Assembly (NCBI GenBank): GCA_964600235.1
Contig: CAZRIV010000008.1
Span: forward strand, 7,683-71,682
Origin: an uncultured Bacteriovoracaceae bacterium
GTDB lineage: Bacteria; Desulfobacterota; Desulfomonilia; UBA1062
DNA: 64,000 bases
Direction: 5' to 3'
Shown: piece by piece, positions 5,235 through 59,007 of the stretch
How positions within the stretch are numbered: position 1 is the stretch's first letter
Layout: each line of letters begins with the position of its first letter
The notes under the pieces: model-generated
Seen by the model: only the letters and a program-made list of their open reading frames with translations
Told to the model about the DNA's origin: nothing
The model's database searches: none
Position numbers and translations under genes: made by a program

Positions 5235-5440
5235 GGGAAGTCAAGCATCGGAATATGATGAGTTGTTAAAAATTTATCTTGATACTTGGAAACCAAAGGT
5301 ATATGTGGGCGCCGTAAGGTTACAAGATCTCACACAAAGGAGCAGTTCATGAGGATGTTCTTCACCGCAGGAATCGTAGTATATGCCTTCCTGGTCTTTC
5401 TCTCCTGGATCTAATCCGAGCATAACTTCCCCGCTATAAT

Positions 5441-8655
<3,215 letters not shown>

Positions 8656-10351: not shown

Positions 10352-10960
10352 TCAGTCGGATTCCATGGAGGTCTTCCATACCTCCCAGACCTTGCCCACG
10401 AGGTCGGGCCCGGGTTTGAGCGTGAGCTTGCCCGGTTTCCAGCCAGACGGCGTGGCCTCGGTGCCCTTGCTGTTCCGCACATACTGGAAGGCCTGGATCT
10501 GGCGGAACGTCTCGCTCACGTTCCTGCCCACCGGCGGGGTGAGCACCTCGTAGCCCTGGATGACACCGTCCGGGTCGATGAGGAACCTGCCGCGCATCTC
10601 CACGCCGGCGTCCGGGTCGTACACCCCGTATACGCTCCCCACCCGCCCTCCACCATCTGCGAGCATGGCAAAGGGCACTCCGCCCTTGACCATCTTTGAA
10701 AGCTCGTGGTCGTTCCACATCTTGTGCACGAACACGCTGTCAACGCTCATGGAGAAGACCTCCACCCCGAGCTTGACGAATTCAGGATATCTCTCGGCAA
10801 CTGCCGAGACCTCGGTGGCTCAGACAAAGGTGAAGTCACCCGGGTAGAAGCAGAGCACCACCCACTTGCCGAGATAGTCGGAAAGCTTCACCTGCACGAA
10901 CTTGCCCTTCAAATATGCCGGGGCAGTGAAATCAGGGGCCTTGCCCCCCACCTTGATCAT
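10352..10960 (-). CDS. Peroxiredoxin (AhpC/TSA family) with in-frame UGA (putative selenocysteine) at the peroxidatic-Cys position; UGA at 10820-10822
   Basis: The two listed ORFs (10820-11236 and 10352-10765) are in the same frame. Read-through gives ...[16 protein letters not shown][UGA][35 protein letters not shown]..., which aligns to AhpC ...FYPADFTFVCPTE..., so the UGA sits exactly on the Cp. Strong RBS (AAAGGAGG) 8 nt before ATG 10960 ([11 protein letters not shown]...). A SECIS-like hairpin lies 10 nt downstream of the UGA. The resolving Cys is replaced by Ser (TPSGWKPG vs VCPAKWKEG). Confidence 0.75.
10788..10812 (-). promoter_or_regulatory. Putative bacterial SECIS hairpin for the peroxiredoxin UGA
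   Basis: On the mRNA: UGA-GCCACCGAGG-UCUCGGC-AGUU-GCCGAGA. This is a perfect 7-bp stem starting 10 nt after the UGA, with a 4-nt apical loop containing GU. Confidence 0.45.
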
Positions 10961-11310: not shown

Positions 11311-11769
11311 GTGAAACAACACCAGAGCGCCACACAGTGTTCCCGGCGTCTTGAGCAGATGCTCTCCAAGCTGAAAGAGCGGAGCTACCGCCTCACGCCC
11401 CAACGCATGGCCGTGCTCGAGATCCTCGCATCCAGCGAAGGACACCCCACCGTTGCCCAGGTCTATGAAACGGTCAGGGCCAAGTTCCCCACCACGAGCC
11501 TTGCTACGGTCTACAAGACAATCATCCTCCTGAAGGAGCTGGGCGAGGTCCTGGAGCTGGGCTTCCCGGACGGCAGCAACCGCTACGACGGCGCCAGGCC
11601 GGAGCCCCACCCCCACATCATCTGCACGAGGTGCAGAAAGATCATGGACCCTGAGCTTTCCAGCATTGACCACCTCAGCGAGGAGATGAAGAAAAAGACC
11701 GGCTATGCCATCGAGTACCACCGCATGGACTTCTTCGGCCTCTGCCCAGCCTGCCAGAAAGGGAACTGA
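11311..11769 (+). CDS. perR: Fur-family transcriptional regulator, PerR-like (peroxide-responsive repressor)
   Basis: Fur-family fold: winged-helix N-terminus (LTPQRMAVLEILA...), a C-terminal metal site with CTRC...CPAC. It lies divergent to the peroxiredoxin and directly upstream of catalase. GTG start. Confidence 0.85.
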   Translation: MKQHQSATQCSRRLEQMLSKLKERSYRLTPQRMAVLEILASSEGHPTVAQVYETVRAKFPTTSLATVYKTIILLKELGEVLELGFPDGSNRYDGARPEPHPHIICTRCRKIMDPELSSIDHLSEEMKKKTGYAIEYHRMDFFGLCPACQKGN

Positions 11770-11885
11770 TTTTTTTTCACTTTACTTAAGAATCATTATC
11801 CGTTAATAGTGATATTCTTCTAAGCTTGATTATCATCCTGAGCCTATTACTATAGCAAAGGTCCATACAGAGAAAGGAGGACGAA

Positions 11886-13370
11886 ATGGCGAAAAAGGAA
11901 AACCCGAACAAGGATAAAAAGAAACTGACTACCAGAAGCGGCGCACCCGTGGTGGACAACCAGAACGTTCTGACCGCCGGGCCGAGGGGGCCTCAGCTCT
12001 TGCAGGATGTCTGGTTCCTCGAGAAACTGGCCCACTTCGACCGGGAGGTGATCCCTGAACGGCGCATGCACGCCAAGGGGTCCGGGGCCTATGGCACCTT
12101 CACCGTCACCCATGACATCACCAGGTACACAAAGGCCAAGATCTTTTCCAGGATCGGCAAGAAGACCGACTGCTTCATCCGCTTCTCCACCGTGGCGGGT
12201 GAACGCGGGGCAGCGGACGCTGAGCGGGACATCCGCGGTTTCGCCATGAAGTTCTACACCGAAGAGGGCAACTGGGACCTGGTGGGCAACAACACGCCGG
12301 TCTTCTTCCTGCGCGACCCGCTCAAATTCCCTGATCTGAACCACGCGGTGAAGCGCGACCCACGCACCAACCTGCGGAGCGCTCTGAACAACTGGGACTT
12401 CTGGACTTCCCTGCCCGAGGCGCTCCACCAGGTGACCATCGTCATGAGCGACCGGGGGATACCAGCAACCTACCGCCACATGCACGGCTTCGGGAGCCAC
12501 ACCTTCAGCTTCATCAACGCGAAGAACCAGCGTTACTGGGTGAAGTTTCACCTGCACACGCAGCAGGGCATCAGGAACCTCACCGATGAAGAGGCCGAGG
12601 CCGCCATCGGCAAGTGCAGGGAAAGCCACCAGCGCGACCTGTACAATGCAATCGAGAAAGGCGATTTTCCCCGCTGGACCTTCTCTGTCCAGATCATGAC
12701 GGAGAAGGAGGCCCAGGCATGCCCCTACAACCCCTTTGACCTGACCAAGGTCTGGTACCACAAGGATTATCCGCTCATCGAGGTGGGTGTTCTGGAACTG
12801 AACCGCAACCCGGAGAACTATTTTGCCGAGGTGGAGCAGTCCGCCTTCAACCCGGCCCACGTGGTCCCGGGCATCGGCTTCTCGCCGGACAAGATGCTCC
12901 AGGGCAGGCTCTTCTCCTATGGCGACGCCCAGCGCTACCGCCTGGGCGTAAACCACGACCAGATCCCGGTCAATGCGCCACGCTGCCCCTACCACAGCTA
13001 TCACCGGGACGGCGCCATGAGGGTGGACGGCAACTACGGCAGCACGCTGGGCTACGAGCCCAACAGCTTCGGCGAGTGGCAGGAACAGCCCGAGTTCAGC
13101 GAACCGCCGCTGAAGCTCTCGGGAGATGCCTACCACTGGGATTTCCGTGAGGACGATGACGACTACTACACCCAGCCGGGCAAGCTCTTCCGCCTCATGA
13201 CCCCCAAGCAGAAGAAGGCGCTCTTCGAGAACACGGCCCGGGCCATGGGCGACGCCCCCAGGGAGATCAAGTTCCGCCACATCAGAAACTGCTTGAAGGC
13301 TGACCCGGCATACGGCAAGGGCGTGGCCGACGCTCTGGCCATTGACCTGAAGAAGGTGCCCAAGGACTAG
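11886..13370 (+). CDS. katA: Monofunctional heme catalase
   Basis: Canonical catalase motifs (RERIPERVVHAKG-like [34 protein letters not shown], a distal His and a proximal Tyr region), 494 aa. RBS GAAAGGAGG lies before the ATG. Confidence 0.97.
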
Positions 13371-13396: not shown

Positions 13397-13434
13397 GCGG
13401 CAGCAGGCTCATGCCAGCTGCCGCCTGTTTTTTA
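13397..13434. terminator. Rho-independent terminator (bidirectional, between convergent katA and the radical-SAM gene)
   Basis: GCGGCAGC-12 nt loop-GCTGCCGC followed by CTGTTTTTTAT. Confidence 0.6.
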
Positions 13435-14445
13435 TACGCAGCCTCCGTAGAAGCGCGACGGCCCGTCCAGTACGTCCCACCCGCACTCTGCAAAGAGGTT
13501 CCGACAGCTGGCCACGGTCTCTCCCCTGCCCTCCTCGGTCTTTTCCCGTACATCCCGGGGGTTGGCACCCACTTCTGCCCAGAACAGGTTGGCACCGGCA
13601 ACCCCTCCCAGCGTGCAGGGCTCGTGGGTGCAGTTGCCGGGCACGGTCCTGGGCATACACAGCCTCGTGATGGCCACGATCTGGGCCATACGGAGCTCGG
13701 TGATGGTGCCGAGCCTTGCCATCTCGGTGCCCGGGATGGGGATGCGCCTGGCCGCCCCGCTGTAGGCAGGGTTTACGGACGCTGTGTACAGAATCAGGTC
13801 TGCGAGCTCTTCATTGGTATGCTCGGGGCCCACCGGCTCCACGCAGGTGCCCACCACCAGGCCCGCCTCCTGGAAGTTGCGGATGCTCTCCCTGCGCTTT
13901 TCCGGGGACAGCTTCGAGTCGATGCCCTCCCGCAGGCGTAAGGCGTGGTACACCCCGGTGATGCCGGCATCCTTCATCCGCCTTGCAGCCTCGTACGTCT
14001 GGTCTCCCACGTTGGCGATAAGGATGGTCTCTTCCCTGAGGTTTTTCCCGATCTCCCGGGACATGTCCAGGAACAGCTCGAAGGGATACTTGGCAGTGGT
14101 CATGACGAACACGGCGTTGGCGCCGTCGTACTCGAACTGCCGCGCATAGGCCACGGCCTGCTCCGCTGTAAGCCGGGTCTCTTCCTGAAAGACATTGTTC
14201 ACGCGGGCAAAGGAGCAGAACCTGCAGTCACCCGGACAGGGCGCCAGGTTGAGCGCCAGCTGGGCGTGCACCTCGGCCTGGTTGCCGGTGAGCTCCTGGG
14301 AGATGCGCCTTGCCTCGGCCATGACGAGGTACGATTCCGGGGAGTCAGGCCGCAGGCCCAGGAGGTCGATGAGATCCTGCCTGGATGGCGGCACGTGGTC
14401 TTTGCTTTTTTCGATCAGGTCGTGAATGTTCATGGATATCCTCAT
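13432..14445 (-). CDS. Radical SAM protein (BioB/HydE/ThiH-like, CxxxCxxC)
   Basis: The CPGDCRFCSF motif sits ~65 aa from the N-terminus. A TIM-barrel-length protein (337 aa) with additional C-terminal Cys residues. Function cannot be assigned from sequence. Confidence 0.85.
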   Translation of the reverse strand: MRISMNIHDLIEKSKDHVPPSRQDLIDLLGLRPDSPESYLVMAEARRISQELTGNQAEVHAQLALNLAPCPGDCRFCSFARVNNVFQEETRLTAEQAVAYARQFEYDGANAVFVMTTAKYPFELFLDMSREIGKNLREETILIANVGDQTYEAARRMKDAGITGVYHALRLREGIDSKLSPEKRRESIRNFQEAGLVVGTCVEPVGPEHTNEELADLILYTASVNPAYSGAARRIPIPGTEMARLGTITELRMAQIVAITRLCMPRTVPGNCTHEPCTLGGVAGANLFWAEVGANPRDVREKTEEGRGETVASCRNLFAECGWDVLDGPSRFYGGCV

Positions 14446-14516
14446 ACCAATCAGCAGATGACTCCATACATATCAAGTTTCAGATCCCGTGCAAGGTCTT
14501 TTCTCATAGACGGTAA

Positions 14517-14840
14517 TCACAGGGGGTCAGTGCCCTGGTATTTTTTCCGGTACATCCGGTACGCAGCAGGGATGAACAAGACCACCACGATGAGCGCCGC
14601 ATCCACCGTGCTCAGCCCCCGAATGGCGTTCTACATGAAGTCCGCATGGCCAGGAACGTCCCCCAGGCTGACCTGCACGCCCAGGGTTAGCAAAAGCGGG
14701 GCGATCCCGAATTCCATGGAAAGACCGCAGCGCTTCTCCTCCTTCATCCTGTCCGCGTCGATACCGGTCAGGGACCTCACGAGGCTCGTCTTGCAGTGAT
14801 CAACATGGCCGGAAACGCCTATGGTAACGATCCGTGACAT
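14517..14840 (-). pseudogene. selB: selB (selenocysteine-specific elongation factor) N-terminal remnant, degraded
   Basis: MSRIVTIGVSGHVDHCKTSLVRSLTGIDADRMKEEKRCGLSMEFGIA...DVPGHADFM[TAG]NAIRGLSTVDAALIVVV then divergence and TGA. It matches the SelB G-domain (GHVDHGKT, TGxDxDRLxEEKxRGISIELGFA, DxPGHExFIxNM, LVVAADEG). It has P-loop G->C, an in-frame TAG, and is cut to ~108 codons where SelB is ~630 aa. Confidence 0.6.
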
Positions 14841-14916
14841 GCTTTATGAATCAATCAGTCCTTCTGCGCTCCACCCATATGAGGTTCTTCGTGGGACCTG
14901 TCCATTCTCTGCACAA

Positions 14917-15008
14917 TGGAAGGGGCAAGGGGAATCGAACCTCCTCCCCGTGTGTTAGCCAGGGCTGACAGATTTGAAGTCCGCGGGGTGCCCAGCATAG
15001 TTGCCCCT
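14917..15008 (-). tRNA. selC: tRNA-Sec (selC), anticodon UCA, 92 nt including encoded CCA
   Basis: The minus-strand sequence AGGGGCAA...GCGGACTTCAAATCTGT...GGTTCGATTCC...TTGCCCCTTCCA has an anticodon loop CUUCAAA identical to E. coli selC. It has a 7-8 bp acceptor stem (AGGGGCAA/TTGCCCCT), a T-loop TTCGATT, a ~23-nt variable arm, discriminator U and CCA. It lies 76 nt upstream of the selB remnant. Confidence 0.75.
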
Positions 15009-15105
15009 GTTCTGTTCGCGGATAGAACGCTCTTACGGATTTTCTTCCAAACACTGATCTTGCTCCAGACAGCTGAAACGGTTGTCCTCTCGAGCCTGAT
15101 CATTA

Positions 15106-16383
15106 TTATTTGAGCATCTCAACGAAGGCCTCGACCCGGGTCCTGAGCTGGCCCACGTCCTCCATGCTGTAGTCTGTCTCGATCCGCAGGGTGGGTATGC
15201 TGTTCTTCTTGAGCTCCTCGGCCACCGGGATGGACTCCATCAGATAGGGCTGGCAGAACTGGAGTCCGTAGTGGATGACCCCATCGGCCTTGTATGTCTT
15301 AACCATCTCTTCCACATGCTTCAACCGGTCAGGGTTCGGGGTGAAGATGGCGCAGTCCACCTGGAAGTAGCGCTCCACGATGGCGTCCATCAATCCATCT
15401 ACCGTACCGGCCGAGCCGTCCACCAGGTTGCGGGTCCCCCGTTCGCCCACACAGGACTCCTCGCCCACGATGACCGCGCCCGAGGTCTCCACGATCCAGG
15501 GCAGCTTCCAGTTCGGCACGGCCATGGGGCAGCCGGAGATGAGGATACGAGGTGTACCTGCGGGGAACACACCCTGCTTCTGCGCGATGCGCATCTCCAG
15601 CTCATCGCAGATCTTGTTCACGGAGTCCGTGAACCTCCTGGGATTGTCGTAGAAATAGACCTGGTTGGCCAACAGGGCGTCAACACCCGATATGGGCGCC
15701 GGGTCCGCCTGGCGAAGCCTGGACAGCCGATGAATGGCCCTGCGCTTGTTGTTCACGGTTTCGATGGCCTCCTTGAGGCCCAGGGCGTCAATGGTCACAC
15801 CGGTGAGCTTCTCAAGGGCCTCTTTAAACTTCAGGTACTCGGCCTTGAGCAATAACCGCCCCTGGGCTGATTTCATCTGGGGAAGGTCCATCACATAGAG
15901 ATTTGACACCAGGGGGCCAAGGGACTCGTAGGCCTTCTTCTTGCCGTCGCAGGTGTTCTCACCCACGATCATGTCCGAGGCCTCCAGATAGGGGCAGACC
16001 TTGCCCAGCTTGAACCCGAAGCTGGACTTGATGAGCGCGCAGGTGTTTCGTGGCAGGAGCTTCTCCACCTCTTCCAATGCGAAGTCTGCGCCCGAGCACA
16101 GCCCCACCAGGGTAGCGTTCGCCGCCAGGACGATCTCCTCGGGCACGTACACACAATAGGAGCCGATGATCTTGCGACCTGCCTTCTTCTCGTCCAGGAG
16201 TTCCCTGATCCGCAGACCATGCACCTCACTCATGACGAAATCAAAGTACTGCATACCTTCGGGTCGGTTTTTCTGCGACAGGTGAATGTCCTTATAAAAA
16301 TTCCCCAAAACCCCAAGAAGCGCGTCGTGGGCAGTCAGGTCAAGCCCCAGATCCTTCCACATGCTGCGATAGTCTTCACCCAT
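15106..16383 (-). CDS. 2-hydroxyacyl-CoA dehydratase family protein (HgdB/HadC/BcrB-like subunit), orphan
   Basis: 425-aa protein with conserved Cys ligands for the dehydratase Fe-S cluster and family-typical overall similarity. No partner A-subunit or activator is adjacent. Confidence 0.8.
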   Translation of the reverse strand: MGEDYRSMWKDLGLDLTAHDALLGVLGNFYKDIHLSQKNRPEGMQYFDFVMSEVHGLRIRELLDEKKAGRKIIGSYCVYVPEEIVLAANATLVGLCSGADFALEEVEKLLPRNTCALIKSSFGFKLGKVCPYLEASDMIVGENTCDGKKKAYESLGPLVSNLYVMDLPQMKSAQGRLLLKAEYLKFKEALEKLTGVTIDALGLKEAIETVNNKRRAIHRLSRLRQADPAPISGVDALLANQVYFYDNPRRFTDSVNKICDELEMRIAQKQGVFPAGTPRILISGCPMAVPNWKLPWIVETSGAVIVGEESCVGERGTRNLVDGSAGTVDGLMDAIVERYFQVDCAIFTPNPDRLKHVEEMVKTYKADGVIHYGLQFCQPYLMESIPVAEELKKNSIPTLRIETDYSMEDVGQLRTRVEAFVEMLK

Positions 16384-16713
16384 GATGTTCCCTCTCTCTT
16401 CAGGTCAGATTGAATTGTTATTCAGTTGCATACGGCATCATATGGGCATGCTTAAATGAATAAATCAAATTCTAATATTGAATGGTTCCTGCATGATTAT
16501 TCAATGATAGCATTATGATACACGACGACAAAAAACCACTTTGAAAAGACTATTTATCGGAACACCGATGTTGATGCTCATGTTTCAGTTTCATGCACAA
16601 ACATATACCACGAATGTCGTAACAATATCTTTACTGTCTTGATTTATAAGACCCCTGAATTATCTTTCTGAAAAAGGGATATCTTATCCCGATTAAAGGG
16701 AAAGGAGTAAGTC

Positions 16714-16923
16714 ATGAAATATGGGGCACGCAACACCATCAAGGCAAAAGTTAAATCCGTGAAAAAGGGCGATGTCATGTCCCTGGTGAAGTTCGAGGCC
16801 ATCAGCGCTGCTGAGATGGCGTCAGTCCTCACCACCGAATCGGTGGAGGGCATGGAACTGAAAGCGGGGGATGCCGTGCAGCTCATCATAAAGGCCATCC
16901 ACGTTCTGCCGGTCAAAGAATAA
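16714..16923 (+). CDS. mop: Molybdopterin/molybdate-binding TOBE-domain protein (Mop, molbindin)
   Basis: 69-aa single TOBE domain (SARNTIKAKV..., here GARNTIKAKVKSVKKGDVMSLVKFE). RBS AAAGGAAAGGAG. Confidence 0.85.
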   Translation: MKYGARNTIKAKVKSVKKGDVMSLVKFEAISAAEMASVLTTESVEGMELKAGDAVQLIIKAIHVLPVKE

Positions 16924-17095
16924 CTAACCTGACAGCGTTTGGAAGGTGCATCCCGCACAGGGTTTGAGCCTGGTTTCGTCTATGAGCGTCCTTGGGAAGT
17001 ACGCCGGTTTTCGTTGTATCGATTTTGAAGATCCTCTCTGCCGAGCGCACACCCATGCTGTGTTCGCCTGCCAGGCCTCTTTTCGTACGCACTGT

Positions 17096-17584
17096 TCATG
17101 AACGGAGCGTAGCAATCAGACGTTTCGGATTTCGAAGCAGATCCAGGGCATCGAGAATGTCGGAGGCTACTATGTCGGCACTTGCCAGTGTAACCGCAGA
17201 TGCCCCTTCCTTTTGAATCAGCGCAATACCGATAGCAGCTTCACTCAGCATTTTCCTGTCATTGAGCCCATTGCCGATGGCGACAACGGTTTCTACCCCG
17301 AGCTGAGATATGAAATCAAACTTTGCTTGAGCCTGGGACTCAACCGGGATAACGGTAAGTTGCACAGGTAATCCGTGAAGCTGGTTTGCCGCCAGGCCGA
17401 ACGTGTCAGCCGTGATTACATGTATCCGGATGACGGTCGAAAGCGCAGCAAGTGCGTCACACACACCGGGAAGCAGTTTTCCGTCCACTGCAAGGGTACC
17501 GTTGAAGTCGCATACAACGTGTTCTATATGAACATTGCCAAAGCCTGGTATATTGACGTCTATCATACTGGTCTCATGAAGCAC
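17096..17584 (-). CDS. HAD-superfamily hydrolase (soluble P-type-ATPase-like HAD domain)
   Basis: Motif I VCDFNGTL. The C-terminal AIGNGLNDRKMLSEAAIGIAL...ADIV resembles the hinge/HAD motif III of P-type ATPases. 11-nt overlap with nifS. Confidence 0.8.
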   Translation of the reverse strand: MLHETSMIDVNIPGFGNVHIEHVVCDFNGTLAVDGKLLPGVCDALAALSTVIRIHVITADTFGLAANQLHGLPVQLTVIPVESQAQAKFDFISQLGVETVVAIGNGLNDRKMLSEAAIGIALIQKEGASAVTLASADIVASDILDALDLLRNPKRLIATLRS

Positions 17585-18719
17585 TACGCAGTCTGATCGC
17601 TGCCGAGGCCACTACATCGACGGCCCGATCGATCTGGGCAACGGTGGTCATCCGGCCAATGGAAAATCGCAAGGTCCCCTTAGCCCATTCGATCGGCACC
17701 TGCATGGCCTCAAGCACATGGGAGACGGTAACAGTGCCGGCATGGCAGGCGGCTCCGGCCGAGGCGGCGACTTCAAGCCCGATCTCCTCCAGCAGGCGAT
17801 TGGACTCGATCCCACTGAATGACAGGTTGAGGGTGTTGGGCAGCCGGTGTTCGGGGTGGCCGTTGAGCCGCACATCTGCCACCCGTGAGGAAATACCCTT
17901 ATGCAGCCTTTCGCGCAGGTCCCTCATGCGGACCATGCTGCCGGACAGTTCTCTTGCCGCTATCTCGCAGGCCTTGCCCAGGCCCACAATCCCAGCCACG
18001 TTCTCCGTACCTGCCCTCCATCCCTTCTCCTGCCCGGCGCCGTGGCAGAACTTCTCAGGCGCAAGGCCTTTCCGTACATAAAGTGCCCCCACGCCCTTGG
18101 GCGCATACAGCTTGTGGCCGGCAACGGAGAGAAGATCAACACCGAGGGTCGACACATCGGCCGGGATCTTACCAATCGACTGGGCGGCGTCGGTGTGCAT
18201 GGCAATGCCGCGCGCCCTGGCCAGTTCGGCAACAGCCGCTATGGGTTGCACCGTACCCACCTCATTGTTTGCATGCATGACCGTAATCAGGATGGTGTCG
18301 GGGCGCAGGGCCTGTTGCACCTGCGCGGGTTCGAGCATGCCCTGGGCGTCCACGGCCACCTTTGTGGTTTCAAATCCTTCACCTTCAAGGTGCCTGCATA
18401 CTTCCAATACTGCCGGGTGCTCAATGGCGCTCGTGACGATGTGTCTGCCTTTGAGCTTGAGCGCCCGGGCCATACCCTTTATCGCATGGTTGTTGGATTC
18501 GGTTCCTCCGGAAGTAAAGAAGACCTCTTCGGGCAGACAGCCGAGCAGACCGGCCACCTGCCGCCGCGCTGACTCCACGGCCTGCTTCGGCATGATGCCA
18601 TACCAGTGGGAACTGGACGGGTTGCCGAACTCCTCCTCCAGAAAGAGCCGCATGGCGGCAAGCACTCCGGGGTCGAGGGGTGTTGTACCGTTGTAATCAA
18701 GGTAGATAGGCCTGGTCAC
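17574..18719 (-). CDS. nifS: Cysteine desulfurase (NifS/IscS-type class V aminotransferase)
   Basis: N-terminus IYLDYNGTTPLDP, PLP Lys region ...SVAGHKLYAPKGVGALYVRKG, and an active-site Cys loop. Confidence 0.9.
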   Translation of the reverse strand: MTRPIYLDYNGTTPLDPGVLAAMRLFLEEEFGNPSSSHWYGIMPKQAVESARRQVAGLLGCLPEEVFFTSGGTESNNHAIKGMARALKLKGRHIVTSAIEHPAVLEVCRHLEGEGFETTKVAVDAQGMLEPAQVQQALRPDTILITVMHANNEVGTVQPIAAVAELARARGIAMHTDAAQSIGKIPADVSTLGVDLLSVAGHKLYAPKGVGALYVRKGLAPEKFCHGAGQEKGWRAGTENVAGIVGLGKACEIAARELSGSMVRMRDLRERLHKGISSRVADVRLNGHPEHRLPNTLNLSFSGIESNRLLEEIGLEVAASAGAACHAGTVTVSHVLEAMQVPIEWAKGTLRFSIGRMTTVAQIDRAVDVVASAAIRLRSAS

Positions 18720-18812
18720 ATAACCTCCGGGTAATCGAAATAATCATACTTGAGCCTGTCCAAACCGACTTTCTCCACTCTTGTCATTTCTCATTCGAAA
18801 TCAATAGCCAAG

Positions 18813-19568
18813 TCAGAAGAACTCCTCTATGAGCTCTTCCAGAAGGCCCGGGTTATGAAAATCCCTGTGTTCAAGGCTTCTCACAATCCTCCCTTCAGAG
18901 AGAATGATCACCCTGTCCGCAATCAACTTCACCTGTCTGATGCTGTGGGACACGGCAAGGATTGTATAATGTTCTTTTAGTTTTACAAGGAGTTCCTCGA
19001 TCTTTCTCGCCGACCTGACATCGAGAGATGCTGTGGGCTCATCCAACAGCAGGACCTCCGGTGAAAGAGCAAGCGCCCTTGCGAGGCATAGTCGCTGCTG
19101 TTGTCCGCCGGAAAGCGTCAGCGCATTATCATTCAACCGGTCACATACCTCGTCCCAGAGTTCTACCTCCCTGAGTACGTGCTCCATCCGTTGATGCCTT
19201 TCCTTCCGACCCATGGAATGTATAACCCGCAAGGGGGCAAGCAGATTTTTCTGTATGGAAAAAGGAAATACATTGGGTGACTGGAATACCATGCCAACCC
19301 TTCGCCTCAGCTCGTTCGGCGTCAGGCCATCATAGACTTCCACGGCTGCGTCTGAGAAGAAAATCTTCATGGATCCGGCTGCCGAGCACCCGGTAAACTC
19401 TTCATTGAGCCGGTTGACGGCCCTGAGCAAAGTGGTCTTGCCGGATCCGGAGGGGCCGATGATCATGGTGATGGAGTGTTTGGGGACATCCATGCTGATG
19501 TTCTCAAGGATCGTCCTACCTGAAAAGCCCACGCTCAGGTTCGTCATGGTTATGGCGGTTTCCTGCAT
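18813..19568 (-). CDS. pstB: Phosphate ABC transporter ATP-binding protein PstB
   Basis: Walker A GPSGSGKTT, signature LSGGQQQRLCLARALA and a PstB-type C-terminus. The probable start is the internal MQETAITM, since the ORF's N-terminal 33 aa overlap pstA. Confidence 0.85.
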   Translation of the reverse strand: MQETAITMTNLSVGFSGRTILENISMDVPKHSITMIIGPSGSGKTTLLRAVNRLNEEFTGCSAAGSMKIFFSDAAVEVYDGLTPNELRRRVGMVFQSPNVFPFSIQKNLLAPLRVIHSMGRKERHQRMEHVLREVELWDEVCDRLNDNALTLSGGQQQRLCLARALALSPEVLLLDEPTASLDVRSARKIEELLVKLKEHYTILAVSHSIRQVKLIADRVIILSEGRIVRSLEHRDFHNPGLLEELIEEFF

Positions 19569-19570
19569 CT

Positions 19571-20473
19571 TCACTCCCCACGGTGCCAGTAACGTTTCAG
19601 ATTCTTCTGGATGTAATAGGATATGAGAAAGAGCGTTCCAGTAAGGACAAGCAGAACGAGTGCACATCCAAAGGCCTTCTGCAGTTCGAAATCATCCCTG
19701 TGCTCTGCAGTCAGGTAAAATATTGTGAACGGAAGGGCCTCGAACTTGTCGGACAATGCCCGTGGAATACCCGCATTGGCCACTACACCGGTAAGCATGA
19801 TGACCGCCGTGTCTTCCGCTGCGCGGCCTATTGCCAGGACAATACCGCTGAAAATCGCAATGCTCGAAGCGGGCAGCAGGACATGCAAAATATTCTGCCA
19901 GCGGGTATATCCCAGCGAAGGCCCCAACAGCCGCACACTGTCCGGCAGGCTTTCAAGGGCGACCTGGGTCATCCGGATCAGGTACGGGAGGATGAGCAGG
20001 GCGATGCACACCGAAGACAGCATGATCGACGTGTTGGCATGGTTGAACAGGGTTCTCCGCATAAGGAGGATCAGGGCAAAGCCGAACAGCCCCATGACGA
20101 TGGAAGGCATGCCGGAGAGCAGATCCACCATGAAACTGAAGACCGATTTTAAAAAACCATGTGCATATTCAGCCAGGTATATGCCGCAGCATATCCCGAG
20201 GGGAATGGCGATGATGGATGAACACACAATAAGGATGAATGTCCCTGCCATGGCCGGATAGATGCCTTCAAAGACCGGCTCTGTTCCGACTATGGCAGCC
20301 ATCCACGGGGTGTCGCCGAAGAACAGCGTATGGCTCATGGCAGGCCATCCCCTCACGAACAGGTACACCATGAGCACACCCACGGACACCACGACGAGGC
20401 CGGAGGCAAGCCAGGAAAACACGCTGAATGCCCTTTCAGGACGCACTGCCATTGCGTTTCTTTCCCTTTCCAA
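19571..20473 (-). CDS. pstA: Phosphate ABC transporter permease PstA
   Basis: 6-TM ABC permease with an EAA-like loop, in the order pstS-pstC-pstA-pstB. The start may be the internal MAVRPERAF. Confidence 0.85.
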   Translation of the reverse strand: MERERNAMAVRPERAFSVFSWLASGLVVVSVGVLMVYLFVRGWPAMSHTLFFGDTPWMAAIVGTEPVFEGIYPAMAGTFILIVCSSIIAIPLGICCGIYLAEYAHGFLKSVFSFMVDLLSGMPSIVMGLFGFALILLMRRTLFNHANTSIMLSSVCIALLILPYLIRMTQVALESLPDSVRLLGPSLGYTRWQNILHVLLPASSIAIFSGIVLAIGRAAEDTAVIMLTGVVANAGIPRALSDKFEALPFTIFYLTAEHRDDFELQKAFGCALVLLVLTGTLFLISYYIQKNLKRYWHRGE

Positions 20474-21314
20474 GAGTGCCGCCGAGGCTGCGGATGACCA
20501 TGGTGAGACATGCCATGATCAGAAAAAGCATGAGCCCCGAGGCAAAGATGGAGTAATACGCCTGGTCCTGCGAGTCGGTGGCCACCACCAGTGCGATGTG
20601 AGCGGTGAGGGCGCGGATTGGGTCAAGCAGCGAATGGGGTATGACCGGGGCATTACCCGCCACCATGAGGGCCACCAAGGTATCGCCCACGGCGCGCCCG
20701 AACCCCAGGACCGCCGCGATGACCAGCCCTTTTGCGGAACAGGGGAGAAGCACCCAGAGCACTTCCTGGACAGGGGTCAACCCCAGGGATCGCGCCGCCA
20801 TGTGGACCTCGAGCGAGCGCTGGCTCATCTGAGCGTTCAGGGATATCACCACGGTGGGCACAATGAGGATTCCGAGGGTTATGGCGGATGCCGCAAGGCA
20901 GAATCCTGTGCCGTGTTCGAAATAGTCACGGAAAAGGGGGACCAGGATAAAGACCGACACGAACCCGTAGATGACCGTGGGAATGCTCGTCATGAAGTAC
21001 ACCAGACCGAGAACGATGCCCCTGACCCTGGCCGGCGCGAGTCCCTGGCTGAAGCAGGCAATGCCCACTGCCATGGGATAGGCAATGCCCAGGGACAGCA
21101 GTGCGAGGCTGAATGTGCCTGCCACCATGGCGAGTATGCCGAACTGGCCCGCGAACGGCTTCCACGTCCAACTGAAGACTGCGGCAAAGCCCCGCGCATC
21201 GAGGAACAGGGGCCATGAAAAATAGACGAGGAAGCCGAAGACCGCTGTGACACACAGCGAGCAGAACAGTGCCGAGGCAAAAAGTGCCCGTTCGACCCAT
21301 TTTTCGATCGTCAT
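20436..21314 (-). CDS. pstC: Phosphate ABC transporter permease PstC
   Basis: 6-TM permease with a conserved PstC core. Confidence 0.85.
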   Translation of the reverse strand: MTIEKWVERALFASALFCSLCVTAVFGFLVYFSWPLFLDARGFAAVFSWTWKPFAGQFGILAMVAGTFSLALLSLGIAYPMAVGIACFSQGLAPARVRGIVLGLVYFMTSIPTVIYGFVSVFILVPLFRDYFEHGTGFCLAASAITLGILIVPTVVISLNAQMSQRSLEVHMAARSLGLTPVQEVLWVLLPCSAKGLVIAAVLGFGRAVGDTLVALMVAGNAPVIPHSLLDPIRALTAHIALVVATDSQDQAYYSIFASGLMLFLIMACLTMVIRSLGGTLGKGKKRNGSAS

Positions 21315-21357
21315 GACGATGCGCTTTCCCCGATGGGTGCGCCTGCACCCATCGGGA

Positions 21358-22191
21358 CTAGTTGGGGATGGGAATGTACCCGCTCTTCTTGACGATCTCG
21401 GAACCGTCGGGCCCTTTGATGTAGTCGATGAAGGCCTTCACGAGCGCGGAGGGCTGCCCCTTGGTGTTCATATACAGGTTTCTCGCCACCTTGTAGGCGC
21501 CTGATTTCGCGTTTTCCTGGGTCGGCTCCATCTTGTCGATGACAACGGCCTTTACATCGCCTCCCACATGCCCGATCCCGAGATAGCCGATGGCCTGGGG
21601 GTCCTGCGCTATTGCGACCTTCATCGCACCGTTGGACGAAACGATATTGATGCCCTGGGCCACGTCGCCCTTGTTGAGCAGCTTCTCCCAGAACACCTCG
21701 CGGGTGCCGCTGGCTTCGTCCCGGCCGAACACATGAATGGCTGCATTCACCCCGCCCACGTCCTTCCAGTTCACGATCTCGCCTGCGTATATCTTCCTTA
21801 TCTGCTGGGAAGAAAGCTCCTTGACGGGGTTCTTCGGGTTTACCGCCACCGCGACACCGTCAATGGCGAAGGGAAACGATACGAGCCCGTACTTGTTCTT
21901 CTCCGCATCACTGAGCGCCCGTCCGGTGTTGCCGATATCCACCAGGCCTTCCCCGACCTTCTGCACGCCCACCCCGGAGCCCCCGCCCGCCACGGTGATC
22001 CTGATGCCGGGGTTGAACTTCATGATATTCTTTGCCGCGTCGTTCATCACCGGGATATGGGCCGTTCCGCCTGCAATATCAATGGTCCCCTTCAGACCGG
22101 TGAACCTGTCCATCTCTGAACCATGAGACGTGCCGGCAATAAGAAAAGCGAACATGCTCATAATGACCGCGACGAGAGATACCCTGTTCAT
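21358..22191 (-). CDS. pstS: Phosphate ABC transporter substrate-binding protein PstS
   Basis: Signal peptide plus a PstS-family fold (GTIDIAGGTAHIPV..., ...ITVAGGGSGVGVQKV...). RBS GGAGGA 6 nt upstream of ATG 22191 (MNRVSL). Confidence 0.85.
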   Translation of the reverse strand: MNRVSLVAVIMSMFAFLIAGTSHGSEMDRFTGLKGTIDIAGGTAHIPVMNDAAKNIMKFNPGIRITVAGGGSGVGVQKVGEGLVDIGNTGRALSDAEKNKYGLVSFPFAIDGVAVAVNPKNPVKELSSQQIRKIYAGEIVNWKDVGGVNAAIHVFGRDEASGTREVFWEKLLNKGDVAQGINIVSSNGAMKVAIAQDPQAIGYLGIGHVGGDVKAVVIDKMEPTQENAKSGAYKVARNLYMNTKGQPSALVKAFIDYIKGPDGSEIVKKSGYIPIPN

Positions 22192-22424
22192 GAATCCTCC
22201 TGCCATGTTTTTGCACACGATAGAATAAATCTCAGCGGTTGAATAATAACATGTCTCTATAGATACAGCTCAATTATTCAAAATAGTTATAAAGAGATAA
22301 TCAGGTCACTCCATTCGAAGTCCCTCGTATGGACGCTGCCTATGGCAAGGCTCATGCGGGGCACACCCCGGTCAGGCTACAGGCTCTTCTTCGAGGTCAA
22401 ATCTGTGGTGAGCATCCGGCCTTG

Positions 22425-23180
22425 CTAGTGTCCTGAACCAGGATCGAAGCCTCCGGACTCGATTATGTAGCAGAACTGTTTCAGACCCAGCAGGTTGGCT
22501 ACGCCGGTGACGGTCACGCCGTAGAAATAGGTATCCCGGCCCGCGTCCAGTATCTCGTCAATGGTACCGTTCACGACCGTGCTCCCGGTGGCAAAGATCG
22601 CCTCGGCCCAGGCGGCGTTCTCGGAAAAACGTTCCGGCCCGTCGATCACGACACCACATTTGGTCGTTCCGATGTTCTCCGGGTTCAGGTCGCAGGCCCT
22701 TACGTTTTTCAGCTCCGTCAACTTTTCCAGGAAGCGCGGCTGCAAACCGACGAGCAGGACCTTGTCCGCTTTTATGGACTGGTGCTTCAGGCAATCGAGG
22801 AAGTGATCGGCGCATCTCATGAGATCGTTGTCCTTGCAGTGCAGCGACTCTGGTATCCTCCCCAGATAGGCCATGATGGCGTTCAGGGATGAAATGAAGA
22901 TGGCCCTGCGCGCGTTGGTTTCCAGGTTCAGAGCGAGCACGTCGCCGACCTTGCCGCTGTAGTTGAAACAGGAATCTGAAAAGGCCTGTCCCTTTCTGCC
23001 CATGAAATCGGCCTCGATGATCCTCTCTTTGCCCAGTTGGATGGGATAGTCGTCGTGAAGCGGATTTCCGATGGCCTCTTCGGGCGTCAGCGTCTTGCAG
23101 GTGATGGTTATTTCCCTGTCCTGGATATCCAGGTTGTCTATTATTTCCATGAGCTGTTTTCTCGCCTGTTCCAAGATCAT
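22425..23180 (-). CDS. DUF364/DUF4213 Rossmann-like domain protein (putative metal-chelation/cofactor-associated)
   Basis: 251-aa protein with two-domain DUF4213+DUF364 features (conserved Cys/His). Typical neighbour of metal/oxyanion ABC transporters. Confidence 0.7.
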   Translation of the reverse strand: MILEQARKQLMEIIDNLDIQDREITITCKTLTPEEAIGNPLHDDYPIQLGKERIIEADFMGRKGQAFSDSCFNYSGKVGDVLALNLETNARRAIFISSLNAIMAYLGRIPESLHCKDNDLMRCADHFLDCLKHQSIKADKVLLVGLQPRFLEKLTELKNVRACDLNPENIGTTKCGVVIDGPERFSENAAWAEAIFATGSTVVNGTIDEILDAGRDTYFYGVTVTGVANLLGLKQFCYIIESGGFDPGSGH

Positions 23181-23215
23181 GAACCGTCTTCCTCCTTATC
23201 CTTTGTGAATATGAA

Positions 23216-24001
23216 TCAGCGTTCGCCGGGGCTCTGTTTATAGCCGTATTTCTTTTTTATGTTTTGGGCTTCCGTCGAAACAAGAAACGCGGCAAAATGA
23301 CGGGCACGCTCGATGTCTTTTGCGTTCTTTAACACACATGCCGAATATACCACAGGCGGCACCTCTTTCATTTCATAGTAGCAGCCCGTTTTCCCCTGGT
23401 CAGTATAGGCATGCGCGAGTGAACAGAAGGCGGCATCCACAGCGCCTTCCGATGCATACTGAAATACCTGGGACAGGTCCGGCGCGTATACGAGCCTGGA
23501 CACAACAGAATCCCAGAGGCCGGCATCCTGAAGGGCCTTTTTCGCCCTTAATCCATGCACGGCTGTTTCAGGATTGGCTATGGCGATTTTCTTCACGTCC
23601 TTGCCCATGAGCGCAGACCGCCAGTCATGAAAGGTGCAGAAATTCCGGTTCGAAGACCAGAGGATGACCTCGCCTGTCGCATATATGAACGGCTTCTCGC
23701 ACAGTGCCTTTTCATGGAGCAGGTCAGGCCTCTCCCTGTCTGCGGAGAGGAAGATGTCATAGGGCGCCCCGTTGACGATCTGACCGTAGAATCTTCCTGC
23801 CGACGTATACGTGGGCACGATCTTGACGCCGGTTTTCGCCTCGTAGGCAGCCGCAATCTCTTCGAAGGGCATGATGAAGCCTGCCACGACGGCCGCGTTT
23901 ATCTTCTGGTCTGCAAAAGCCCGGCCCGGCATGAACATGAAATTTACACATACCATTACAAAAACCAGAACATACACGTACATCCGTTTTGATCGTTCCA
24001 T
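23216..24001 (-). CDS. modA: Molybdate ABC transporter substrate-binding protein ModA-like
   Basis: Signal peptide and a ModA-family fold (...INAAVVAGFIMPFEEIAAAYEAKTGVKIVPTYTSAG...). Orphan: its permease and ATPase are not adjacent. Confidence 0.8.
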   Translation of the reverse strand: MERSKRMYVYVLVFVMVCVNFMFMPGRAFADQKINAAVVAGFIMPFEEIAAAYEAKTGVKIVPTYTSAGRFYGQIVNGAPYDIFLSADRERPDLLHEKALCEKPFIYATGEVILWSSNRNFCTFHDWRSALMGKDVKKIAIANPETAVHGLRAKKALQDAGLWDSVVSRLVYAPDLSQVFQYASEGAVDAAFCSLAHAYTDQGKTGCYYEMKEVPPVVYSACVLKNAKDIERARHFAAFLVSTEAQNIKKKYGYKQSPGER

Positions 24002-24307
24002 AAATACGCTGCCCTCTCTTTCCCGAAATGAGATGCCGAAGCAAGAGTCTAAGGCGGGGTTTTATTTATGTCAAGTTTAACATAATTTAATGCGGCCCTC
24101 TGCCTCCTCCCTTCCGGATCATACCCCTGGCGAATGGACCCTGAAAGGGCAGGTGCGGAAAGGGGGGACTGTCCTGACTGACTTGAGCTTCCTGAATCAA
24201 ATCACGGTTTCACGGGGCGTCTGTTTTTCCTTTTCTCCCAGGAGAGTCTGTGGCAGCATGATCACGCCCACGGCCACCGGAAAATACTGTGAGAGGAAGG
24301 GGAAAGC

Positions 24308-24961
24308 ATGAACGACCTCAAAGAATACCTCATATCGACGGACACAATCGACTGCGGCCACGGGCAGATCCTCGCAAAGGCCCGCGAGCTCACCCTGGGC
24401 TGCGCCTCACAACGGGAAAAGGCGCTCAGGCTCTTTGCCTTTGTCCGCGACGAGATCCCCTACAACCTCTACATGATCTCGGTCTTCAGGGAAGACTTCA
24501 GGGCCTCGCGCGTCCTGGCGTGGGGCAAGGGCTACTGCGTCCAGAAGGCGGTACTGTTCACGGCCCTGGCCAGGGCCGCAGGCATCCCGGCGCGCCTGAC
24601 GTTTGCCAGGATCCGCAACCACAAGGCCCCGGCAAAGATCGTGGCATTCACCGGGACCAACATCTTCCCCCGCCACGGCTACACCCAGCTCTTCCTTGAT
24701 GGTGCATGGGTGAGCGTGGCGCCTACCTTTGACCGAGCCCTGTGCGAGAAGATCGGCGTGCCTGTCGTGGACTGGGACGGCCGCACCGACGCCACGCTGC
24801 CCGCGGAAGACCTCCAGGGAGGGAAGTACATCGAGTACATTGAAAAGTTCGGGCACTACGCCGACCTGCCCTTTGACTGGATCGTGGCCGAGACCTCGAA
24901 GAACGTGGGGAAGGACAAGAGGCCCTGGATAACAAGGGACGACATCCCCAGGGGATTATGA
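24308..24961 (+). CDS. Transglutaminase-like cysteine-peptidase superfamily protein
   Basis: Catalytic Cys context GKGYCVQKAVLFTALARAAGIPAR plus downstream His/Asp. Confidence 0.8.
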   Translation: MNDLKEYLISTDTIDCGHGQILAKARELTLGCASQREKALRLFAFVRDEIPYNLYMISVFREDFRASRVLAWGKGYCVQKAVLFTALARAAGIPARLTFARIRNHKAPAKIVAFTGTNIFPRHGYTQLFLDGAWVSVAPTFDRALCEKIGVPVVDWDGRTDATLPAEDLQGGKYIEYIEKFGHYADLPFDWIVAETSKNVGKDKRPWITRDDIPRGL

Positions 24962-25001
24962 GCATATCCCCCCGGATAAGCTCATCTTAGCGGCTCTCCC
25001 T

Positions 25002-26039
25002 TCAGAACATATGCACGGCGGACGTCTTGAACGAGATCTGCGCACGCGTGCCGATGTCCAGGCTAAGATCCACCGCAGAGCCCTTGGTCACAAGCGACCT
25101 GAACACCAGGGCCTGCACTGATACATGGACCTCGTAGAGAAAGCCCTGGTCGATGATACCGCTGATGATGCCTGTGAAGGAGTTGCGCATGCTCGACTCC
25201 AGGGGATCGAGGCTTATGACGATATCCTCGGGCCTGATGGCGAGGTAGCCGCTGGGATTATCGTGCCGGCGAGGGACCTCGACGGACAGGGCGCCCAGAT
25301 CTGCCGTAGTCCCGTTGAATACGGCCGGAAAGATGTTCTTCATGCCCACGAAGTCCGCCACGAAGGAGGACGAGGGCCTCTGGAAGATGTCCCGGATCGT
25401 CCCGGTCTGCATAATCGTGCCGCTGTTCATGACGGCCGCCCTGGTGGCGAGCGTCAGTGCCTCGGAAAAGTCATGCGTCACCATGAAAAAGGTGATGTGC
25501 GAGCTCTTGTGGATCTGCTTGAGCAGCAGCCGGATCTCCTCCCTGAAGCCCTGGTCCAGGGCAGAAAGCGGCTCATCCAGGAGGATCACCCTCGGTTCCA
25601 CCATGAGGGCCCTCGCCAGGGCCGAGCGCTGGAGCTCGCCGCCGCTGAGCGTCTCCGGGTGCCGGTGGAGCAGGTGGCCGATGCCGAGGTCATCCACGAG
25701 CTTTTTGAACCGCGCTCCGGCAGCTGCCCTGTCGTGCCGGTGATAGCGAAGGCCGTAGGTGATGTTGCTTTCGATGGTCAGGTGCGGGAACAGGGCATAG
25801 TCCTGGTACATGATGCCGATACCCCGCTTCTCCGGAGGCAGCCTCGTGATGTCCCTGCCTCCCACCACGATGCTCCCGCCGAGGACCGGGACCAGCCCTG
25901 CAATGGCCTCCAGCAGGACGGTCTTGCCGGCGCCGGTGGGGCCCATGAGCACGAAGAACCCGCCTTCTTCTATGGAGAGGTCGATGTCCTTGAGGCGGAA
26001 TTCGCCAAGATGAACCTTCAGTCCCCTGATATCGATCAT
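25002..26039 (-). CDS. Molybdate/tungstate ABC transporter ATP-binding protein with C-terminal TOBE domain (ModC/WtpC-like)
   Basis: Walker A GPTGAGKT, LSGGELQRSALARAL, Walker B ILLDEP, a C-terminal TOBE fold, and an ATGA overlap with the permease gene. The start is taken at MIDIRGL. Confidence 0.9.
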   Translation of the reverse strand: MIDIRGLKVHLGEFRLKDIDLSIEEGGFFVLMGPTGAGKTVLLEAIAGLVPVLGGSIVVGGRDITRLPPEKRGIGIMYQDYALFPHLTIESNITYGLRYHRHDRAAAGARFKKLVDDLGIGHLLHRHPETLSGGELQRSALARALMVEPRVILLDEPLSALDQGFREEIRLLLKQIHKSSHITFFMVTHDFSEALTLATRAAVMNSGTIMQTGTIRDIFQRPSSSFVADFVGMKNIFPAVFNGTTADLGALSVEVPRRHDNPSGYLAIRPEDIVISLDPLESSMRNSFTGIISGIIDQGFLYEVHVSVQALVFRSLVTKGSAVDLSLDIGTRAQISFKTSAVHMF

Positions 26040-26821: not shown

Positions 26822-26834
26822 AACGGTCTGCCTG

Positions 26835-27824: not shown

Positions 27825-27894
27825 ACAAATTCCTCCTCATGTATAGATTTTTTGGATGCTCCCCATAACTCAGGCCGTGCCTTCCCTTCTGCGA

Positions 27895-56788: not shown

Positions 56789-58027
56789 ATGAAGCATTGG
56801 CCCTTCCTTTTCATCCTGCCGGCCATGCTGTTCATTGCCGTCCCTGCAGATGCCCCTCGGGCGGATTCCAACTCCTGCGTTATCTGCCACACCGACGGTG
56901 CCAAGCTGAAGTCCCTGGTCATCCCGCCCAAGATCCACTCTGAGGGAGAGGGTTGAGCGGGTGCTCCTCCGCCGGTCCGGGCGGAAGACTACTACAAGGG
57001 TTACCTGGTGGACTCCTCTCTTCTGGAAAAGGACCCTCACCTCTCCAGGGGATGCCGCTCCTGCCACAAGGGAAATGCCGATGCCCAGGATAAGGACGAG
57101 GCGCATAAAGGCATGCTCAAGCGGCCCTCCGACGACCTCGCTACCTGTGGAGGCAAGTGCCATGGGAAGATCGCCGCAAACTATGCCAAATCTCTGCATT
57201 ACACATCCCTGGGCCAGAGGCAGGGGGTCATCCCCCGGTTCTCCAGGGCCGAGGTCAAGCTCTTCGACCAGAAGGTCTTCCAGCAGTCCTGCCGCAGCTG
57301 CCACGCCTCCTGCGGGTCCTGCCATGTGAAATCGCCCGCGGTATCGGGCATAAGCCTGGGTCTCATCAAGGGCCACAAGTTCATCAAGAAGGACGAGGGC
57401 AAGACCTGCGCCTTCTGCCACGGCGGCCGCGTATACCCCGAATACACCGGTGAGTACGGAGGGTCTACGGATATACACTACCAGAAGGGCATGATGTGCG
57501 TGGACTGCCACAAGAAGGTGGAGATGCACGGCGACGGCAGGAGATACCTGGGGAAGCAGGAAGTGAAAGACCGGCCGAAGTGCACGAACTGCCACAAGAC
57601 CATCAAGTCGGGCAAGCTCCGCGTACAGGTGGCCCACGATGCCCACAAGGGCAAGGTGAGCTGCTACGGCTGCCACGCCGCGGGCCAGTACCGGAACTGC
57701 TACACCTGCCACAAGGAGTCGACCTCGAAGCCCGGCTTCATCCTGGGGAAGAATCCGCGCAATCTAAAAGAGGTCACCACACTGAGGATCATCCCCACGG
57801 TACGCGACAGCTTCGCCCATGCAGGAATCAAGCAGGAGAACTACGACAGGCTTCCCAACTACTGGAATACCCCGGCACACACCATCAAAAAACGGACGGA
57901 CCGGACACGGTCTTGCGATATCTGTCATACGGAGAAGAAGGATTTCCTCACCCGGGAGACCCTTCTGAAGGACGGCTCCAAGGCCAATCAGGGACTGATC
58001 CATGTCCCGAAACCCATAACACACTAG
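56789..58027 (+). CDS. Periplasmic multiheme cytochrome c (~11 CxxCH) with in-frame UGA at 56954-56956 (candidate Sec/recoding site, or a disrupted gene)
   Basis: ATG 56789 encodes signal peptide MKHWPFLFILPAMLFIAVPADA plus a first heme motif CVICH. The sequence ...SEGEG-UGA-AGAPPPVRAEDYYKGYLVDSSLLEK... continues in the same frame into the 57008-58027 ORF, which itself lacks a signal peptide. Ten further CxxCH motifs follow. Confidence 0.55.
56968..56985 (+). promoter_or_regulatory. SECIS-like hairpin 11 nt downstream of the cytochrome UGA
   Basis: UCCGCC-GGUCCG-GGCGGA: a 6-bp GC-rich stem with a GGUC apical loop (compare the GGUC apex of E. coli fdhF SECIS) in the canonical window after the UGA. 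Confidence 0.3.
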
Positions 58028-58937: not shown

Positions 58938-59007
58938 TGCACCAGCCGGGACGGGACAGGCACAGCCATGTCCCGTCCCGTGTACCATGGAAAGGATTGG
59001 GGAACGA

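Follow-up and report, generated by a model that had tools for sequence, protein, structure and literature searches.

A decayed selC*-type tRNA and a chimeric selB* fragment, the probable remnant of an accessory module, near a selenocysteine peroxiredoxin gene

The locus and its features

The relic lies on the minus strand of the window, i.e., the whole 64-kb stretch of DNA that was analysed. Its coding part is a 108-codon frame (14840→14517, counting an internal TAG and the terminal TGA) that opens with an ATG at 14840 and closes with a TGA stop at 14519-14517; the mechanically called ORF amounts to 69 aa (14840→14631), since it ends early at the TAG of codon 70. The CCA end of a tRNA-like gene falls at 14917, 76 nt 5' of this ATG, which is the distance given in a sequence-only reading of the same DNA. 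That reading had described the locus as a degraded selB N-terminus beside a tRNA-Sec gene. The degraded SelB-family fragment and its tRNA-Sec-like neighbour are indeed there; their identity as canonical selC-selB did not stand. The features, in order along the window, are:

10352..10960, minus strand: prxU, selenocysteine peroxiredoxin gene (NF040737), UGA at 10820-10822
11311-11769, plus strand: perR (FUR family)
11886-13370, plus strand: catalase gene
13432..14445, minus strand: BioB/HydE-like radical-SAM (rSAM) gene (family matches, synteny)
14517..14582, minus strand: tail of a Fer4/CCG gene, last ~21 codons and TGA, LFIPAAYRMYRKKYQGTDPL* (homology to locus L081)
14580..14594, minus strand: junction zone (alignments to selB* and to the Fer4/CCG tail; read from the sequence)
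14583..14840, minus strand: selB* 5' fragment, codons 1-86 (family and structure matches, alignment)
14841..14916, minus strand: spacer from tRNA to ATG, ~45 nt longer than in most relatives (DNA alignment)
14917..15008, minus strand: selC*-type tRNA pseudogene (Rfam, ARAGORN, alignment with selC* of 15 relatives)
15106..16383, minus strand: double-cubane-cluster reductase (DCCP) gene (NF040772, 474.7 bits)
56789..58027, plus strand: multihaem cytochrome c gene, in-frame UGA at 56954-56956

The fragment belongs to the SelB rather than the EF-Tu family, as had been proposed: the NCBIfam model TIGR00475 (selB) matches residues 5-86 with E=4e-22, compared to ~1e-8 for EF-Tu models, and the best PDB matches are the SelB structures 4zu9 (Aquifex aeolicus) and 5lzb (E. 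coli). The lesions that the sequence-only reading listed were likewise recovered. The P-loop GHVDHGKT is changed to GHVDHCKT (codon 16 = TGC, 14795-14793), codon 70 is TAG (14633-14631) at a site where 17 of 17 relatives have Lys, and SelB similarity ends past codon ~86 (~14583), so that the frame diverges before it terminates after ~108 codons. The rSAM, catalase, perR and prx genes are its neighbours beyond this point. A role of TAG 70 as a pyrrolysine codon was considered and rejected, since the frame is in any case cut short and carries other mutations; the rSAM next to it fits BioB (E=5e-17) better than PylB (E=5e-8), both far below the cut-offs of these models.

The tRNA (15008→14917) is called neither by ARAGORN at default settings nor by Rfam at the gathering score. 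RF01852, i.e., tRNA-Sec, is its sole Rfam match and gives 36.4 bits relative to a gathering score of 47, and ARAGORN recovers it only with -ps80; neither program found a second tRNA-Sec match in the window. The anticodon is UCA in a CUUCAAA loop. The 8-bp acceptor stem is formed by AGGGGCAA pairing with UUGCCCCU, followed by U-CCA, with A1:U72 as a base pair, and the 3' end (…CCCC, then TTGCCCCT, T and CCA) encodes both the discriminator U73 and the CCA. From sequence reading and the Rfam alignment, the T stem has 4 bp and a bulged A (GG-A-GG/CCCC). The 96 nt that separate DCCP from the tRNA hold no activase or selB remnant and have no match in the retrieved loci, nor does the spacer 14841..14916 match any of them, and a promoter and terminator scan found nothing on the relevant strand.

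Affinities of the tRNA and of the fragment

A tRNA-Sec-like tRNA-Cys termed selC* is known from Desulfobacterales and Syntrophobacterales (Mukai et al., 2017, Nucleic Acids Res 45:2776, PMC5389517). It is marked by the discriminator U73, an identity element for CysRS, by an anticodon that is either UCA or GCA, and by a modified 8/4 arm, in which the acceptor stem has 8 bp and the T stem has 4 bp with A51a bulged out. A second selB copy, selB*, is located downstream of selC*, and in a subgroup of Desulfobacterales selB* is followed by cysS*, encoding a CysRS without the anticodon-binding domain; genomes with cysS* always have a selC* with A1:U72, and all selC* genomes examined contain complete canonical selA/B/C/D (PMC5389517). 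The module, reviewed in PMC7609411, is thought to insert cysteine at UGA.

The window tRNA resembles selC* in its U73, A1:U72, UCA anticodon, 8-bp acceptor stem and 4-bp T stem with bulged A, and a SelB-family gene begins just downstream of it. With canonical tRNA-Sec it has in common the long variable arm, the 8-bp acceptor stem and the UCA anticodon, but it differs in having U73 instead of G73 and an 8/4 instead of an 8/5 arm, and in scoring below the gathering threshold of 47 bits. A canonical Desulfobacterales tRNA-Sec (locus L151) has G73, an 8/5 arm and 75.3 bits. Since U73 and A1:U72 are combined here with the UCA anticodon and with an 8/4 arm that contains a bulged A, the tRNA is, as judged from its sequence, of the selC* tRNA-Cys type and not a canonical tRNA-Sec. 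The label of a tRNA-Sec gene (selC) in the canonical sense had to be dropped on this comparison with L151.

To place the locus among its relatives, loci were gathered with the DCCP gene as the query; the best 80 have 73-86% identity and come mostly from Desulfobacterales, together with other Thermodesulfobacteriota. Among these best 80, ARAGORN calls tRNA-SeC in 15 and a SelB-like gene (636-659 aa) is present in 17. The usual order is tRNA → SelB-like gene → (CysRS-like gene) → DCCP → activase, with a SelB-like gene <=2.5 kb upstream of DCCP in 15 of the 66 loci that have enough upstream flank, and the activase directly downstream of DCCP (<=400 bp) in 58 of the 76 that have enough downstream flank. 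In L001, L003 and L043, a UCA tRNA with A1:U72 and U73 is followed by selB* and then by a 425-aa CysRS (cysS*), which in L001 spans only positions 3-396 of the 466 in TIGR00435. The relatives carry the label selB* by their linkage to U73 tRNAs and cysS*, not by comparison with the sequences of Mukai et al.

When the fragment was ranked by identity against ~100 SelB N-termini, the 19 closest were all of the SelB* type (56-65%), whereas canonical-type SelB reached at most 54%. The 19 have the motifs GLS.E.G.AP and KNT[IV]RGL, the 19th with RNTVGGL as a variant of the second; canonical-type SelB have RG[IM]TI.LG.A and N[ML]..G. The fragment's own versions are CGLSMEFGIAP and *NAIRGL, the asterisk standing for the stop codon, so that in motifs and in identity rank it goes with the SelB copies found behind selC*-type tRNAs. 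It shares with canonical SelB an EF-Tu-like G domain with SelB-specific sequence, but is without domains II-IV and the SECIS-binding winged helices. The SelB*-type motifs, the identity ranking and the selC*-type tRNA upstream together indicate that the fragment is the N-terminal piece of a selB* paralogue, and not of canonical selB.

Decay of both parts

Both the tRNA and the selB* fragment have decayed. Over its first 86 residues, the fragment differs at 6 of the ~25 columns that are invariant in 17 relatives, i.e., A10S, G16C (in the P-loop), T29A, R38C, I42M and K70stop. Its mean identity to the relatives is 60%, compared to 72% for the relatives among themselves and to the 70-78% predicted from DCCP divergence, so that it falls ~10-20 points short of the DCCP-based expectation, and its pN is 0.23-0.28 relative to 0.11-0.22 between relatives. 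Of a gene that encodes 636-659 aa with an intact P-loop when at full length, only 86 codons are left. In the tRNA, where 15 relatives are nearly invariant for …AAUGGUGCUGG-GCACC…, the window copy has CUA for UGG. These three adjacent substitutions convert the D stem from GGUGC/GCACC to UAUGC/GCACC with the loss of 2 of 5 pairs, G10 and G11 being invariant in the 15 relatives. The selC* genes of relatives score 47.2-61.7 bits in Rfam, compared to 36.4 for the window copy. RNAfold returned a cloverleaf for L001 and L056, whereas the window copy misfolds (-32.7 kcal/mol, z = -0.49) into a minimum free energy (MFE) structure without a D arm.

Relative to the selC* module as described in PMC5389517, the window copy thus appears dead: the D stem is broken, cysS* is absent (tblastn of the window with the CysRS* of L001), and selB* is cut to 86 codons, mutated in the P-loop, interrupted by a stop codon and fused to a foreign tail. 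With lesions of this kind, neither the tRNA nor the fragment would be expected to be expressed or active. We consider it highly probable that the locus no longer functions and is what is left of a selC*-selB*(-cysS*) module, an accessory system of sulfate-reducing bacteria that occurs in Desulfobacterales.

Eroded selB* genes are present in other loci also. In L161 (ENA k141_2882725, 157-674), codons 1-84 are joined out of frame to the last ~30, with ~85-603 missing; in L162 (Ga0326323_10018190, 1728-2732), codons 1-141 are followed in another frame by ~420-588, with ~142-419 missing; and in L020 (9852-10001), selC* is followed by DCCP with no selB* between. L161 and L162 were among the closest database matches to the fragment in a search biased towards short proteins, and little should be made of how often such genes turned up. 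As in these two loci, selC* in the window is followed by a selB* broken by a large deletion, and the break in L161 (codon ~84) is close to that in the window (~86). Unlike L161 and L162, where the deletions are internal and the 3' end of selB* is kept, the window has a different gene as its 3' partner, and unlike these two and L020, its tRNA is damaged as well.

A 3-bp D stem alone is no proof of tRNA inactivity, and the acceptor stem, T arm, anticodon loop, U73 and CCA of the window copy are identical to those of functional-looking relatives. It could be that only selB* is dead, and that the tRNA continues to be produced and serves in UGA→Cys suppression or in regulation, being delivered by EF-Tu or by a SelB* from another locus. 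L161, L162 and L020 would be parallels, each keeping a detectable selC* despite an eroded or absent selB*, and in E. coli, UGA was suppressed by a selC* tRNA in the absence of its cognate SelB* (PMC5389517). We regard a living tRNA as improbable, however, given that the three substitutions fall at near-invariant positions and remove 2 of 5 D-stem pairs, that the Rfam score is 11-25 bits under that of every relative, that the MFE fold is not a cloverleaf, and that tblastn of the 64-kb window found no cysS* nearby to charge an A1:U72 tRNA.

Selenocysteine use, the junction and the origin of the remnant

The sequence-only reading had offered decay of the Sec system, with the prx and cytochrome genes as pseudogenes, as one of two scenarios. 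The prxU gene matches the PrxU equivalog NF040737 at 396 bits (cut-off 270), its UGA is at the peroxidatic position, and the same UGA is found in all seven homologues retrieved. In the comparison with prxU of L082 (93% identical), the part before the UGA has a dN/dS of 0.09 and the part after it one of 0.08 (dS 0.32-0.64). With a dN/dS of 0.08, the sequence past the UGA has been translated for most of this divergence, and prxU is, on this measure, intact and under purifying selection. A hairpin 11 nt past the UGA (7 bp, AGUU loop) serves as a supporting detail only, the RNAfold z-score over 81 nt of this region being -0.81 and not significant. The cytochrome gene is a candidate for a second selenoprotein gene: a signal peptide and the first CxxCH motif are encoded upstream of its UGA, which follows SEGEG, and a hairpin (UCCGCC-GGUCCG-GGCGGA) is located 14 nt downstream. 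It is set among a rhodanese gene and other cytochrome genes (58041-63417).

Because the Sec-containing prxU is intact, loss of selenocysteine use by the organism is not indicated, and neither is the scenario of a decaying Sec system. Given prxU, the cytochrome and the full machinery of selC* genomes (PMC5389517), an intact canonical Sec system elsewhere in the genome is likely, and we infer that its selA/B/C/D still serve prxU and the UGA-containing cytochrome. The relic itself is an ordinary pseudogene, and says little on whether the organism still uses selenocysteine.

We give very little weight to the locus being what is left of a canonical selC-selB in an organism losing selenocysteine decoding, even though TIGR00475 selB is the best family model, tRNA-Sec is the only Rfam match of the tRNA and both parts are damaged. 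The U73, A1:U72 and 8/4 arm (compared to G73, 8/5 and 75 bits in L151), the closer affinity of the fragment to SelB* than to canonical SelB, the intact prxU with its dN/dS of 0.08 past the UGA, and the complete canonical machinery of all selC* genomes examined (PMC5389517) speak against it.

We further analyzed the point at which SelB similarity ends. DNA homology to selC*-selB* extends from the 5' end of the tRNA through codon ~86, where CTCATCGTGGTGGTC (14594→14580) is an imperfect match common to selB* (…ALIVV…) and to the tail of a Fer4/CCG gene (…GLMVLV…). At codon ~86, the Fer4/CCG tail LFIPAAYRMYRKKYQGTDPL is joined in frame to selB*. The Fer4/CCG gene encodes a GlpC/HdrD-like membrane-anchored oxidoreductase. 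In L081, whose rSAM is 84% identical to that of the window, the gene 5' of rSAM ends …LIPAVYRMYQKRHQGAEPL*, and the homologue in L083 has 606 aa with Fer4, CCG and VTT domains. Window 14446-14600 matches L081 344-479 by blastn and tblastx, the fragment tail and the 5' region of rSAM are homologous to L081, L083 and L085, and the TGA of the tail is followed by 71 intergenic nt homologous to the downstream spacer of the Fer4/CCG gene in rSAM relatives. The 108-codon frame is therefore a chimera of selB*(1-86) and a Fer4/CCG tail. Since the partner sequence is the 3' end of the gene that natively precedes rSAM in relatives, the junction reads as the product of a deletion or fusion and not of an insertion.

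The other scenario of the sequence-only reading was that an island of rSAM, catalase, perR and prx had entered a selC-selB locus; if it split an intact selB, the 3' part of that gene would be found past the island. The abrupt stop of SelB similarity at codon ~86, with unrelated genes next, is what such an insertion would leave. However, tblastn with full-length SelB* found no other selB piece within the 64-kb window, so that no remaining selB body lies beyond the supposed island there, and the sequence past the break is the native upstream neighbour of rSAM. Homologues of the rSAM gene in L061 and L081-L160 have 64-84% identity to it, and rSAM is adjacent to prxU in L082, L102, L103, L109 and L110 and nearby in L114; by synteny, rSAM→prxU forms a backbone pair that is conserved among relatives. 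L082 is collinear with the window from 35809→27895 (the 27.9-35.8 kb region) and then continues straight into rSAM and prxU, with just ~280 bp separating these two genes. Two segments of the window have no counterpart in L082, one of 13.4 kb (27894→14446) and the other consisting of catalase and perR. A search that tolerated 3 mismatches found the 25-nt 3' end of the tRNA at a single place in the window, no sizeable flanking repeats were found in 9-29 kb, and no integrase family was found among the neighbouring genes scanned. An island within selB is hence very improbable. A tRNA-targeted genomic island was rejected on the lack of an att-like repeat, of flanking repeats and of an integrase in the scanned neighbours.

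Least likely of all is an artefact of assembly or binning, in which a short stretch of common sequence brought two unrelated regions together. The position of the junction inside a 15-nt microhomology, and a source that appears to be a draft contig, would agree with it, but a mis-join cannot account for the stop codon, the lesions of the tRNA and the amino-acid replacements at invariant positions, all of them far from the junction, and 15 imperfect nt is shorter than the usual assembly k-mers.

For the preferred reading as the remnant of a selC*-selB*(-cysS*) module, we infer the following order of events. Illegitimate recombination or deletion at the ~15-nt microhomology, short junction microhomology being typical of illegitimate recombination, would have fused selB* at codon ~86 with the final ~21 codons of the Fer4/CCG gene, the one upstream of the rSAM-prxU unit. 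The ~550 codons of selB* beyond this point would have been lost in the same event, along with a cysS* if there was one. The fragment may then have drifted, with the P-loop Gly->Cys and Arg38->Cys changes and codon 70 becoming TAG, as may the tRNA, with the three adjacent substitutions that abolish two D-stem pairs.

The position of the relic relative to DCCP is unlike that in the selC* loci of relatives. The order in the window is DCCP→selC*→selB*, reversed from the common selC*→selB*→DCCP, and the relic, with DCCP directly upstream, occupies the usual position of the activase (58 of 76 relatives); no activase gene was found within the 64-kb window. A single inversion and a single tandem duplication were each considered as ways to derive the window order from the common one, and no single step fits. 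The order is DCCP-activase-selC* in L076 and selC*-DCCP in L020, and the DCCP/selC* neighbourhood seems, from such comparisons, to be often reshuffled.

Failure to recognize selC*/selB* has consequences for annotation, since pipelines or readers may mistake the relic for a decaying Sec system, or its tRNA for a genuine selC, and the UGA-containing genes may then be wrongly called pseudogenes; recognition avoids this error. The locus also provides an example from nature in which such a recoding system has been lost. It is conceivable, though we hold it to be rather doubtful, that the lineage has given up a back-up module for UGA→Cys and has retained Sec-dependent genes, namely prxU and the cytochrome gene with its UGA; taken with the eroded selB* genes of L161, L162 and L020, this would make SelB* dispensable and repeatedly lost. 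If true, the recurrent place by DCCP/activase, rSAM and selD(UGA)-yedF would point to the physiological setting of the selC* system.

Several further observations concern the neighbourhood. Besides DCCP and the relic, which lies at the rSAM-proximal edge, the extra 13.4 kb (14446-27894) contains pstSCAB, nifS, HAD, mop and an ABC transporter whose substrate is probably tungstate or molybdate; no mobile-element genes were seen in this segment. The perR and catalase genes (11311-13370, plus strand) are wedged between rSAM and prxU on the opposite strand, and L086 also has a catalase gene after rSAM. The rSAM-prxU pair occurs in at least five metagenome loci, with prxU immediately after a BioB/HydE-like rSAM. 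In 15 of the 66 related loci, selC*-selB*(-cysS*) is directly upstream of DCCP and activase; loci with this linkage are L001 (6600-12045), L003, L008, L010, L013, L025, L043, L056, L058 and L059, and further L062, L064, L065 and L069-L071. The linkage of selC* to DCCP is unmentioned in the main text of Mukai et al. (PMC5389517) and could, as a modest lead, hint at the physiological context of the module. In L007 (1456-6951) and L153 (2254-8987), DCCP-activase clusters contain a BioB-like rSAM, selD, yedF and mop; selD in these clusters is Sec-containing (GAG-U-ASKLP), and the neighbourhood looks selenium-related. Finally, L001, the closest relative by DCCP, has a tyrosine-recombinase-like ORF (5255-5806, minus strand) ~800 bp 5' of selC*.
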